A stretch of 64,000 nucleotides of DNA from Escherichia coli (GTDB taxonomy: Bacteria > Pseudomonadota > Gammaproteobacteria > Enterobacterales > Enterobacteriaceae): NCBI RefSeq assembly GCF_003334385.1, contig NZ_QOWN01000010.1, one strand, 5' to 3'. The notes beneath the pieces are model-generated. The model did no database searches, was not told where the DNA came from, and saw nothing but the letters and a program-made list of their open reading frames with translations. Shown here in pieces: positions 2,594 through 21,918 of this stretch (position 1 is its first letter; the number at the start of each line of letters is the position of its first letter). The position numbers and the translations under genes are program-made.

Positions 2594-3712
2594 ATGAATA
2601 ACGAGGAAACATTTTACCAGGCCATGCGGCGTCAGGGCGTTACCCGGCGCAGCTTTCTCAAATATTGTAGTCTGGCTGCCACGTCGCTGGGATTAGGCGC
2701 GGGAATGGCACCAAAGATTGCCTGGGCGCTGGAGAACAAACCGCGCATTCCGGTGGTATGGATCCACGGTCTGGAATGCACCTGCTGTACCGAATCTTTT
2801 ATCCGCTCCGCTCACCCACTGGCGAAGGACGTCATCCTTTCCCTGATTTCCCTCGATTACGACGATACTTTGATGGCTGCCGCCGGAACCCAGGCGGAAG
2901 AAGTCTTTGAAGACATCATCACGCAATACAATGGCAAATATATCCTCGCAGTAGAAGGTAATCCGCCGCTGGGCGAGCAGGGGATGTTCTGTATCAGCAG
3001 CGGTCGACCGTTTATTGAGAAACTCAAACGTGCCGCTGCCGGAGCCAGCGCGATTATCGCCTGGGGAACCTGCGCGTCCTGGGGCTGCGTGCAGGCCGCG
3101 CGACCCAATCCGACGCAGGCAACGCCTATCGACAAAGTCATCACCGACAAACCCATTATCAAAGTACCTGGCTGCCCGCCGATCCCGGATGTGATGAGCG
3201 CCATCATTACTTACATGGTGACCTTTGATCGCTTGCCAGATGTCGACAGAATGGGCCGTCCGCTGATGTTCTATGGTCAGCGAATCCACGATAAATGCTA
3301 TCGCCGCGCCCACTTCGACGCCGGAGAGTTCGTCCAGAGTTGGGATGATGACGCTGCCCGCAAAGGTTACTGCCTGTACAAAATGGGCTGCAAAGGGCCT
3401 ACCACCTATAACGCCTGTTCCTCCACACGCTGGAATGATGGCGTTTCTTTCCCAATCCAGTCTGGTCACGGCTGCCTGGGCTGTGCGGAAAATGGTTTCT
3501 GGGATCGCGGTTCGTTCTACAGCCGCGTGGTCGATATTCCGCAAATGGGTACTCATTCCACCGCCGATACCGTCGGTTTAACCGCGCTTGGCGTGGTGGC
3601 AGCGGCTGTTGGTGTGCACGCAGTCGCCAGCGCCGTTGACCAGCGCAGACGTCATAACCAGCAACCTACAGAAACCGAACATCAGCCAGGCAATGAGGAT
3701 AAACAGGCATGA
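2594..3712 (+). CDS. hyaA: hydrogenase-1 small subunit (NiFe), Tat signal peptide
   Basis: ORF 2567..3712; start at [23 protein letters not shown] (twin-arginine motif); Cys clusters for FeS. Confidence 0.95.
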
Positions 3713-8194: not shown

Positions 8195-9739
8195 ATGTGG
8201 GATGTCATTGATTTATCGCGCTGGCAGTTTGCTCTGACCGCGCTGTATCACTTTTTATTTGTACCCCTTACCCTGGGGCTGATTTTTTTGCTGGCTATTA
8301 TGGAAACCATTTACGTGGTCACCGGCAAAACAATCTACCGCGATATGACGCGCTTCTGGGGTAAGCTCTTCGGTATCAATTTTGCTCTTGGCGTGGCTAC
8401 CGGCCTGACCATGGAGTTTCAGTTTGGTACTAACTGGTCATTCTATTCCAACTATGTGGGCGATATTTTTGGCGCACCGCTGGCGATGGAAGCATTAATG
8501 GCCTTCTTCCTCGAATCCACCTTTGTCGGGCTGTTCTTCTTCGGCTGGCAACGGCTGAATAAATACCAGCACCTGCTGGTGACGTGGCTGGTGGCGTTCG
8601 GTTCAAATCTCTCTGCGTTGTGGATATTGAATGCCAACGGTTGGATGCAATACCCGACCGGTGCGCATTTTGATATCGACACCCTGCGTATGGAGATGAC
8701 CAGCTTCAGCGAGCTGGTCTTTAATCCGGTCAGCCAGGTGAAATTTGTGCACACCGTAATGGCGGGCTACGTGACCGGGGCCATGTTTATTATGGCGATC
8801 AGCGCCTGGTATTTACTGCGCGGACGGGAGCGCGATGTCGCATTACGCTCGTTTGCCATCGGTTCCGTCTTCGGTACTCTGGCGATTATCGGTACCCTGC
8901 AACTCGGAGACAGTTCTGCGTATGAAGTCGCGCAAGTACAACCGGTAAAACTGGCGGCGATGGAAGGGGAGTGGCAAACGGAACCTGCACCTGCACCGTT
9001 CCATGTGGTTGCCTGGCCGGAACAGGATCAAGAGCGTAACGCCTTTGCCCTCAAAATTCCCGCGCTGCTAGGGATCCTCGCCACTCACTCATTAGATAAA
9101 CCCGTGCCGGGTCTGAAGAATTTGATGGCTGAAACCTACCCACGCTTGCAACGCGGACGTATGGCCTGGCTGTTAATGCAGGAAATATCGCAAGGCAATC
9201 GTGAGCCGCATGTGTTGCAGGCATTCCGGGGACTGGAAGGTGACCTGGGCTACGGCATGTTGCTCTCCCGCTATGCGCCGGATATGAATCATGTCACAGC
9301 CGCACAGTACCAGGCGGCGATGCGTGGCGCGATACCTCAGGTTGCGCCGGTATTCTGGAGTTTCCGCATCATGGTGGGCTGTGGTTCCCTGCTGCTACTG
9401 GTGATGCTGATTGCGCTTGTCCAGACGCTGCGTGGCAAAATCGACCAGCATCGCTGGGTGCTGAAAATGGCGCTCTGGAGTTTGCCGTTGCCGTGGATTG
9501 CGATTGAAGCCGGGTGGTTTATGACCGAGTTTGGTCGTCAGCCGTGGGCGATACAGGACATCTTACCGACATACTCCGCGCACTCCGCTTTAACCACAGG
9601 ACAACTGGCTTTCTCACTGATCATGATCGTAGGGCTTTACACCCTGTTCTTAATCGCCGAAGTCTACCTGATGCAGAAATATGCCCGTCTGGGGCCGAGC
9701 GCGATGCAGAGTGAACAACCGACGCAGCAACAGGGGTAA
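8195..9739 (+). CDS. appC: cytochrome bd-II ubiquinol oxidase subunit I
   Basis: ORF 8189..9739; CydA-like sequence; start at [14 protein letters not shown]. Confidence 0.93.
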
Positions 9740-20853: not shown

Positions 20854-21138
20854 ACAAATTCCTTACTGAAAATACTGCGCTGCACTATACGGGGTTAATA
20901 AAATAAAGCCAGCGATATTTAAGACCGCCGGACGGCTAAAATAAAATTTGCTTAATCTCAATTATCATGCGTTAATAGCTGCGTCGGTTTGAAAGACAGA
21001 CAGCATACAAAGTAGTTTACTAAAGCAGTTCTCATTATCAGGCATTATCCCCTTCTTTTGAGTCTCTCTCCTGAACACTAAGTAGTTTCTGTATTAAAGC
21101 CCTGTTTGCCGAAAGGCCCAAAATGAAGGAAGTAAAAT

Positions 21139-21351
21139 ATGTCTAATAAAATGACTGGTTTAGTAAAATGGTTTAACGCAGATAAAGGTTTTGGCTTTAT
21201 CACTCCTGATGATGGCAGCAAAGACGTTTTCGTCCATTTCACCGCCATCCAGAGCAATGAATTCCGCACGCTGAACGAAAATCAGAAAGTTGAATTTTCT
21301 ATTGAGCAGGGGCAACGTGGCCCCGCGGCAGCGAACGTTGTTACGCTCTAA
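21139..21351 (+). CDS. cspG: cold-shock protein CspG
   Basis: 70 aa; [24 protein letters not shown]1 motif. Confidence 0.95.
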
Positions 21352-21361
21352 GGTTGCCATT

Positions 21362-21550
21362 ATTACTCAACATCTCCATTTCCGCTGTCCATGTTGTCAT
21401 GGTTCACAGTACCGCACATCGGCATTCGATGTGACGGAGCGAAACCCTTTGGGCGCTAAGTGTATTTTTTGTAAATCGACGATGATCACCTTTGATAACG
21501 TCGCGCTGCAAATACGCACTGACCATGCGCCGCTGGATTTCACAAAATAA
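21362..21550 (+). CDS. ymcF: small Cys-rich (CxCC...CxxC) zinc-ribbon-like protein; start codon uncertain, possibly non-ATG
   Basis: Conserved frame ..ITQHLHFRCPCCHGSQYRTSAFDVTERNPLGAKCIFCKST..; the only in-frame ATG lies inside cspG in another frame. Confidence 0.5.
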   Translation: MTQHLHFRCPCCHGSQYRTSAFDVTERNPLGAKCIFCKSTMITFDNVALQIRTDHAPLDFTK

Positions 21551-21755
21551 TATCAGGCTCCCTCGTGGAGCCTTTTTTATATCTGCCTTATTTTTCTTCA
21601 ACGCTGTATGTATAGTAAGCGATAACCTGTTGATTATTGAATCTTTCGGGGAGATGGCTTATAACATTTCTTACCTGACCAGGGTACCGGGAACCAACAC
21701 CTTACTGGCGTGTTGCTGTCTTTTAAGACCAGAAGAGGTTAACAGTGAATATTGA
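21525..21755 (+). CDS. ymcE: small membrane protein YmcE (76 aa)
   Basis: ORF 21492..21755; recognised from MRRWISQNNIRLPRGAFFISALFFF. Confidence 0.75.
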   Translation: MRRWISQNNIRLPRGAFFISALFFFNAVCIVSDNLLIIESFGEMAYNISYLTRVPGTNTLLACCCLLRPEEVNSEY

Positions 21756-21918
21756 AGAGTTAAAAAAACAAGCCGAAACGGAAATCGCCGACTTTATCGC
21801 GCAAAAAATCGCCGAGCTGAACAAGAATACAGGGAAAGAAGTCTCTGAAATTCGCTTCACCGCACGAGAAAAAATGACCGGGCTTGAAAGTTATGATGTC
21901 AAAATCAAAATAATGTGA
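21745..21918 (+). CDS. gnsA: GnsA (57 aa), GTG start
   Basis: GTG at 21745; translation MNIEELKKQAETEIADFIAQKIAELNK...KIKIM; too short for the ORF track. Confidence 0.8.
   Translation: MNIEELKKQAETEIADFIAQKIAELNKNTGKEVSEIRFTAREKMTGLESYDVKIKIM

Follow-up and report, generated by a model that had tools for sequence, protein, structure and literature searches.

The ymcF gene and its surroundings

The window, by which we mean the whole 64,000-nucleotide stretch of Escherichia coli DNA analysed here, carries a small cysteine-rich reading frame directly 3' of the cold shock gene cspG (Table 1). The frame is free of stops up to the TAA at 21548-21550 and encodes ITQHLHFRCPCCHGSQYRTSAFDVTERNPLGAKCIFCKST..., with both cysteine pairs that had been pointed out in the initial annotation. 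Its first codon begins, as also described there, at the 11th base after the cspG stop, which leaves a gap of 10 nt. The frame is not a new element but a known annotated gene. RefSeq/PGAP lists it as ymcF (b4723), encoding a 62-residue "cold shock small protein YmcF" (WP_071524879.1) with the translation ITQHLHFRCPCCHGSQYRTSAFDVTERNPLGAKCIFCKSTMITFDNVALQIRTDHAPLDFTK followed by a stop. In the MG1655 reference (NC_000913.3) b4723 lies at 1051684..1051872 and has the same start as in the window. Over positions 21100-21800 the identity with many RefSeq E. coli chromosomes is 100%; their ymcF CDS falls on the coordinates given in Table 1, and the region was matched in 5,417 of the 5,426 complete E. 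coli genomes. YmcF matches the Pfam family PF23641 (YmcF-like) over model positions 1-62 of 62 (hmmscan E 1.8e-49). A search of NCBIfam with YmcF gave sub-threshold matches only, and a search of PHROGs gave no match.

The initial annotation had placed the only in-frame ATG of this frame at 21290, inside cspG. The bases there read TTG, and the ORF listing prints an M at this position as TTG counts as a start. The only in-frame ATG is that of Met41, which is internal and lies 3' of both cysteine pairs, so that it is unusable as a start for the conserved protein. This misread detail leaves the conclusion about the start unaffected. Within cspG the frame contains in-frame TTG or GTG codons at 21290, 21302, 21317 and 21338, and in E. 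coli it is open across the last 25 cspG codons. A Shine-Dalgarno sequence, TAAGG or TGAGG, overlaps the csp stop codon in every junction that we examined.

The Rfam match to the cspA-type thermoregulator extends 54 nt beyond the cspG stop. The terminator-like hairpin with its T run begins shortly after the ymcF stop, and a hairpin with a T run is found at the same site, with different sequence, in Salmonella, Kosakonia, Citrobacter, Klebsiella, the Qin prophage and phage mEp460. In Salmonella, the Rfam sRNA STnc220 (RF02077; locus L004, 1347-1425; 105.8 bits) matches the last 43 nt of ymcF and the terminator, while the E. coli counterpart (window 21508-21588) scores 34 bits only. This "sRNA" has the appearance of a 3'-terminal piece of the csp-ymcF mRNA. 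Since it covers the end of ymcF together with the terminator, the transcript seems to stop there. In published RNA-seq tables ymcF varies jointly with cspG and ymcE (PMC10920338, PMC11728337, PMC13058169). Together with the thermoregulator leader on its transcription unit, this co-variation is an indirect indication that ymcF may be induced by cold, as its name suggests. The pair of cspG and ymcF is best read as a bicistronic cold-shock mRNA that is closed by the terminator.

The terminator after ymcF falls within the annotated ymcE CDS, which overlaps ymcF by 26 nt. Expression of ymcE would need readthrough of the terminator or a promoter of its own. The 21-residue ynfR ORF of Qin likewise spans the terminator 3' of ynfQ.

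Table 1. Features in and around ymcF, in positions of the window
Feature	Position	Strand	Evidence
cspA-type thermoregulator (cspG 5' leader and coding region)	20983..21405	+	Rfam RF01766, 159.3 bits against a gathering threshold of 78, E 3.4e-43
cspG, cold shock protein, 70 aa, TAA at 21349-21351	21139..21351	+	ORF list; RefSeq on identical DNA
TTG, first in-frame TTG/GTG after the upstream stop, inside cspG	21290..21292	+	Sequence; not conserved as a start
Shine-Dalgarno-like TAAGG overlapping the cspG stop, 8 nt before ATT	21349..21353	+	Sequence; csp-adjacent orthologs, ynfQ, mEp460
ymcF CDS	21362..21550	+	RefSeq annotation; Pfam PF23641; dN/dS 0.05-0.1
ATT start codon of ymcF	21362..21364	+	RefSeq CDS coordinates; aligned-codon survey
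First Cys knuckle C9-P10-C11-C12, then H13-G14	21386..21397	+	Alignment A1, 30 sequences
Second Cys knuckle C34-I35-F36-C37	21461..21472	+	Alignment A1, 30 sequences
Only in-frame ATG (Met41)	21482..21484	+	Sequence; M41 invariant in alignment A1
Terminator-like hairpin AGGCTCC-CTCGT-GGAGCCT and T run, 4 nt past the ymcF stop	21555..21579	+	
Neighbours: cspH (-), cspG 21139..21351, ymcE 21525..21755, gnsA 21745..21918, yccM (-)	20.6-23 kb		Sequence; ORF list

Conservation of YmcF and its relatives in phages

A protein search returned 137 homologous proteins, and PF23641 was present in 120 of 120 among the matches listed. The listed homologs come mostly from Escherichia, Salmonella, Citrobacter, Klebsiella, Raoultella, Enterobacter, Kosakonia, Leclercia, Kluyvera and other Enterobacteriaceae, a family in which the core HFRCPCCHGSQYR...GAKCIFCK is nearly invariant. 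In alignment A1 (30 sequences) the residues H6, F7, R8, C9, P10, C12, G14, Q16, R18, S20, D23, P29, G31, A32, K33, I35, F36, C37, K38 and M41 are invariant, and C11, H13 and C34 nearly so (C34 in at least 90%). The initial annotation had proposed to check the conservation of the frame and of candidate near-cognate starts across Enterobacteriaceae, and the check bore it out, with C9, C12 and C37 invariant and ATT or ATC conserved beside csp.

Variation in ymcF is concentrated at third codon positions, with summed entropies of 18.4, 11.5 and 54.4 for the three codon positions over 88 distinct core sequences. Measured against the ymcF of the window, dN/dS comes to 0.096 in E. albertii, 0.073 in Salmonella, 0.053 in Klebsiella and 0.059 in Enterobacter; the pairs furthest apart show saturation of synonymous sites. 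All 89 loci compared keep an intact frame, as do phages. The low dN/dS, the third-position variation and the near-invariant core show YmcF to be a protein under strong purifying selection.

A paralog, ynfQ (b4724), is found in the K-12 prophage Qin. It encodes 62 residues, starts with ATT 10 nt after cspI, and has TGAGG over the cspI stop. YnfQ thus resembles YmcF in the HFRCPCCHGSQYR...GAKCIFCK core, in the csp-adjacent layout and in the ATT start, but it belongs to a cryptic prophage rather than to the chromosomal cspH-cspG locus and has a different C-terminal tail. Directly 3' of the ynfQ stop there is a terminator, followed by ynfR, ynfN and gnsB, an arrangement that parallels ymcE and gnsA after ymcF. 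The gene has been catalogued as uncharacterized (PMC11551758), and our literature search on ymcF and ynfQ found mentions in gene lists only and no functional or start-site study. The name ynfQ has been used for two different genes. The "ynfQ" in Table 1 of VanOrsdel 2018 (37 aa, 1632890-1633003) is ynfT (b4748) in the current RefSeq and not the YmcF paralog, and the tagging data reported there under "ynfQ" are therefore inapplicable to b4724. In our extract of the MG1655 Qin locus (L013) the two names, ynfT and ynfQ, correspond to 2891-3004 and 8257-8445, respectively.

Phage mEp460 carries, 3' of its lysis genes, a block composed of csp, a ymcF-like ORF, a 76-residue ORF and gnsB, with the csp-adjacent layout of ynfQ, and this block is present in a Citrobacter prophage as well. 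The csp-ymcF pair is a mobile module, which is also found in the late region of lambdoid phages. The version in Morganella phage IME1369_01 has 44 residues and begins with an ATG 9 nt past the csp stop. The annotation of several phage records lacks the ymcF-like ORF (mEp460, L094 2501-2689; IME1369_01, L095 1501-1635; hits H13-H15 and H17), presumably as gene callers reject ATT.

The first codon of ymcF and the csp gene upstream

We compared 89 loci, with ortholog DNA taken from 9 assemblies and 80 species genomes, and aligned the first codon by its distance to the FRCPCC motif. Loci L017 and L031 had no match to the codon-alignment motif and were left unscored. In the 43 loci that have the end of a csp gene 9-10 nt upstream, the aligned first codon is ATT in 40 cases and ATC in 3. 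ATG is seen in none of them; the loci with a strictly intact adjacent csp have 37 ATT and 3 ATC, and those whose csp was scored as partial have 3 ATT. Of these 43 loci, 15 lack any ATG, GTG or TTG in the open frame from the preceding in-frame stop to the conserved motif. The suggestion of a non-canonical start near 21362 thus held up, both in the annotated ATT at that position and across all of the csp-adjacent loci. The neighbouring ATT at 21359, the preceding codon, is GTT in other Escherichia and hence not conserved. In the Kosakonia group (L038, L042, L055, L058, L063, L066, L068) the gap is 9 nt and the csp TAA lies in the ymcF frame, followed by three non-start codons and then ATT.

When no intact csp adjoins ymcF, the aligned codon itself is ATG in 35 loci, and in six further ones an ATG lies within 1-6 codons of it. 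The genes of the 35 loci possess their own, stronger Shine-Dalgarno sequences (CAGGAG, AGGAG, AGAGG or AAGGAG). There are exceptions. Three Pseudescherichia-like loci (L057, L084, L090) retain ATT with an AAGGA Shine-Dalgarno and no csp upstream, and in the Morganella phage a csp gene with TAAGG is followed, 9 nt on, by an ATG. The start in the three Pseudescherichia-like loci, near 1501, reads ATT ATT, and C11 is replaced by H in L084 and by R in L090.

In a neighbour-joining ordering the ATG/no-csp state is found in about 5-7 separate groups, and the split between ATT and ATG follows clades. The association therefore rests on some 5-7 events and not on 89 independent loci. In Klebsiella oxytoca and Raoultella, a decayed csp remnant is located directly upstream of an ATG-start ymcF, which means that ATT was converted to ATG on the spot. 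Pieces resembling the cspG leader were found with blastn about 150-300 nt upstream of stand-alone ymcF. The comparison of these loci suggests that they arose through loss of the csp coding region. An Rfam scan upstream of the stand-alone genes detected no cspA-type element. Short stretches like the cspG promoter and leader (window 20928-21035) occur at L057 1239-1257, L087 1183-1253, L046 1201-1265 and L008 1052-1075. In Citrobacter sedlakii (L023, 1297-1689) the csp stop was lost by deletion, giving a frame of 130 codons that is continuous with ymcF. The RNA-binding motifs of this csp are mutated (VKEFN, VFVPSS) and its ymcF begins with ATG.

The real genes infC and pcnB of E. coli begin at a conserved AUU (or AUC) codon; AUU is weak, and IF3 discriminates against it. 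Judging from the aligned loci ymcF shares this pattern, with ATT or ATC kept at the start and, in 15 of the 43 csp-adjacent loci, no canonical codon that could serve instead. We have little doubt that ymcF is a real gene with an ATT start. For infC, autoregulation by IF3 is experimentally established, whereas ymcF is known here from sequence comparison. The position of the codon also differs, as the AUU of ymcF, unlike those of infC and pcnB, lies 10 nt past the stop of another gene and is replaced by ATG when that gene is lost. The link of the ATT start to an adjacent csp gene, for which we found no earlier description as far as we could search, is suggestive and is possibly the new point of this comparative analysis.

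Our main reading, to which we give a probability of about 0.85, is that ymcF, a known and conserved gene, is the second cistron of the cold-inducible cspG mRNA and starts at AUU. Its output would most likely be low and coupled to the termination of CspG. The weak AUU would be used by ribosomes that have just finished CspG, or by 30S subunits which the Shine-Dalgarno over the stop has drawn in, and this would hold YmcF at a low, constant ratio to the abundant CspG. Initiation at AUU has been put at about 1-2% of that at AUG (bioRxiv 10.1101/063800), and AUU mRNAs are especially poor competitors at low temperature (PMC5499595). With so weak a codon placed at the termination site of a heavily translated csp message, a small, csp-proportional amount of YmcF would be expected. 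The output might also respond to IF3, as at infC, since this factor discriminates against AUU. Once the upstream csp is lost from a lineage, ATT would usually give way to ATG and a stronger Shine-Dalgarno would be gained.

Termination-reinitiation couples second cistrons in many bacterial operons and in the lysis genes of RNA phages. The anatomy of such pairs is also that of cspG and ymcF, with stop and restart about 10 nt apart (10 nt, and 9 in the Kosakonia group), a Shine-Dalgarno in the end of the upstream gene and a weak start. Coupling of ymcF translation to cspG would fit this anatomy of a stop-overlapping Shine-Dalgarno, a fixed gap of 9-10 nt and a weak start. One difference is that folding of the cspG-ymcF junction revealed no significant structure that masks the start (z -1.36), so that any coupling would act through reinitiation or the local supply of ribosomes and not through unmasking. 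We lean slightly towards a role of the ATT codon in coupling or throttling. Coupling is not needed at all loci, as the Pseudescherichia-like ones keep ATT with no csp upstream. The further step, that AUU is a selected part of the csp-ymcF design which ties YmcF synthesis to ribosomes leaving csp and to the level of IF3, and so fixes a low YmcF to Csp ratio during cold shock or late phage expression, is a tentative one that we would put at a little under even odds. If AUU were selected in this way, loss of csp would force conversion of the codon to AUG.

An alternative is that ymcF is translated independently of cspG. TAAGG could recruit free 30S subunits and AUU could act as a low-efficiency, IF3-sensitive start as in infC, with no termination-reinitiation involved. 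The 8-nt spacing of the Shine-Dalgarno suits such de novo initiation, the Pseudescherichia-like loci keep ATT and AAGGA without a csp gene upstream, and the AUU starts of infC and pcnB function alone in E. coli. But an irrelevant neighbour would hardly account for the consistent ATT or ATC beside csp when almost all stand-alone loci have ATG, and AUU mRNAs are weak in the cold (PMC5499595), exactly when cspG mRNA is made. We therefore consider independent translation rather unlikely. There is much less to be said for a true start at one of the in-frame TTG or GTG codons inside cspG (21338, 21317, 21302 or 21290), which would add 8-24 residues to the protein. Such codons are present in the window, many relatives likewise have a TTG 8 codons upstream, and some database entries are versions of 70-72 residues. 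However, the repeated TTG follows from the conserved N-V-V codons of csp, no Shine-Dalgarno precedes 21338, and the extension is not conserved as protein. Moreover, the 15 csp-adjacent loci that lack a canonical start have in-frame stops just 4-10 codons upstream. An upstream start is thus very improbable.

The open ymcF frame over the end of cspG in E. coli might also permit a CspG-YmcF fusion by frameshifting or stop readthrough, and in Kosakonia both genes share one frame that a single TAA interrupts, while in Citrobacter sedlakii the csp ORF continues in frame into ymcF. The frame relation varies by lineage, however, with the gap being 9 or 10 nt, and many loci leave only a few csp codons for a shift before an in-frame stop is reached. 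The C. sedlakii case, with its mutated RNA-binding motifs and a ymcF that has its own ATG, looks like decay, and stand-alone ymcF genes are common. We see hardly any chance that a fusion is the product. The same low standing applies to the idea that the frame is untranslated in E. coli, either as a relic without ATG or as a side effect of conservation in an RNA, for instance a 3' UTR or sRNA. A canonical start is indeed absent, in Salmonella an Rfam sRNA family overlaps the 3' end, and no direct evidence for the YmcF protein or for AUU initiation was found in the literature searched. Against this, the ATT-start group taken alone (E. albertii, Salmonella) gives a dN/dS of 0.07-0.1, the 40-residue core shows almost no variation although synonymous sites are saturated, and the frame is intact in 89 of 89 loci and in phages.

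As ymcF is already part of the reference annotation, our analysis adds no new element. It does provide an independent check that a reading of sequence alone can recover a real gene without a canonical start codon, and the same ORF standing unannotated in several phage records shows why genes with non-canonical starts get missed. The association of ATT with a neighbouring csp gene offers a testable hypothesis for the retention of such a start. If AUU is indeed selected in the coupled csp-ymcF arrangement, a conserved mobile family would join the very short list of AUU-start genes in E. coli, infC and pcnB. YmcF and YnfQ are functionally uncharacterized members of the cold-shock regulon.

Predicted fold and role of YmcF

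The two CxxC knuckles of YmcF are 21 residues apart. The AF2 model has a core of moderate confidence, with a pLDDT of about 80-86 for residues 11-40 (mean 66 for the model), and places short strands beside each knuckle. Two CxxC knuckles near predicted beta strands are a feature shared with zinc-ribbon and rubredoxin-like proteins, and YnfQ has been modelled as rubredoxin-like with a metal site in a 2026 review (PMC13348028). YmcF differs from these proteins in the additional conserved residues H6, C11 and H13, which form part of a CPCCHGSQY motif. Of the zinc-ribbon-like label given in the initial annotation, the two CxxC-type pairs stand and make it plausible, but fold and sequence searches did not confirm it. 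A profile search of the PDB gave only non-significant, motif-level matches, to UvrA and Rieske proteins, and neither by fold nor by sequence did YmcF significantly match a solved structure. On the model and the conserved cysteines, YmcF probably folds as a metal-binding ribbon of the zinc-ribbon or rubredoxin-like type, with C9, C12, C34 and C37 as predicted ligands. Its function is the least certain step of our account. YmcF is probably an accessory factor of the csp module, and a predicted RNA- or ribosome-associated role is a speculative suggestion that we regard as doubtful.

Some similarities to other small cysteine-rich proteins were seen on the way. The segment R8-Y17 (window 21383-21409), RCPCCHGSQY, resembles box II of Rieske proteins (KCPCHGSQY in cytochrome b6f). 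The likeness of the YmcF CPCCHGSQY to the Rieske CPCHGSQY is below threshold, and YmcF has no equivalent of box I. The NCBIfam family NF047912 (ECs_2282 family putative zinc-binding protein) reached 17.4 bits against a cut-off of 37 and was set aside. YnfU was considered as a relative of YmcF and rejected, as BLASTP shows no similarity between the two. YnfU, a small cysteine-rich putative zinc-binding protein of the PF23499 type, itself recurs by csp genes (L075 836-1006 on the minus strand, L011 904-1071 and L013 10806-10976).
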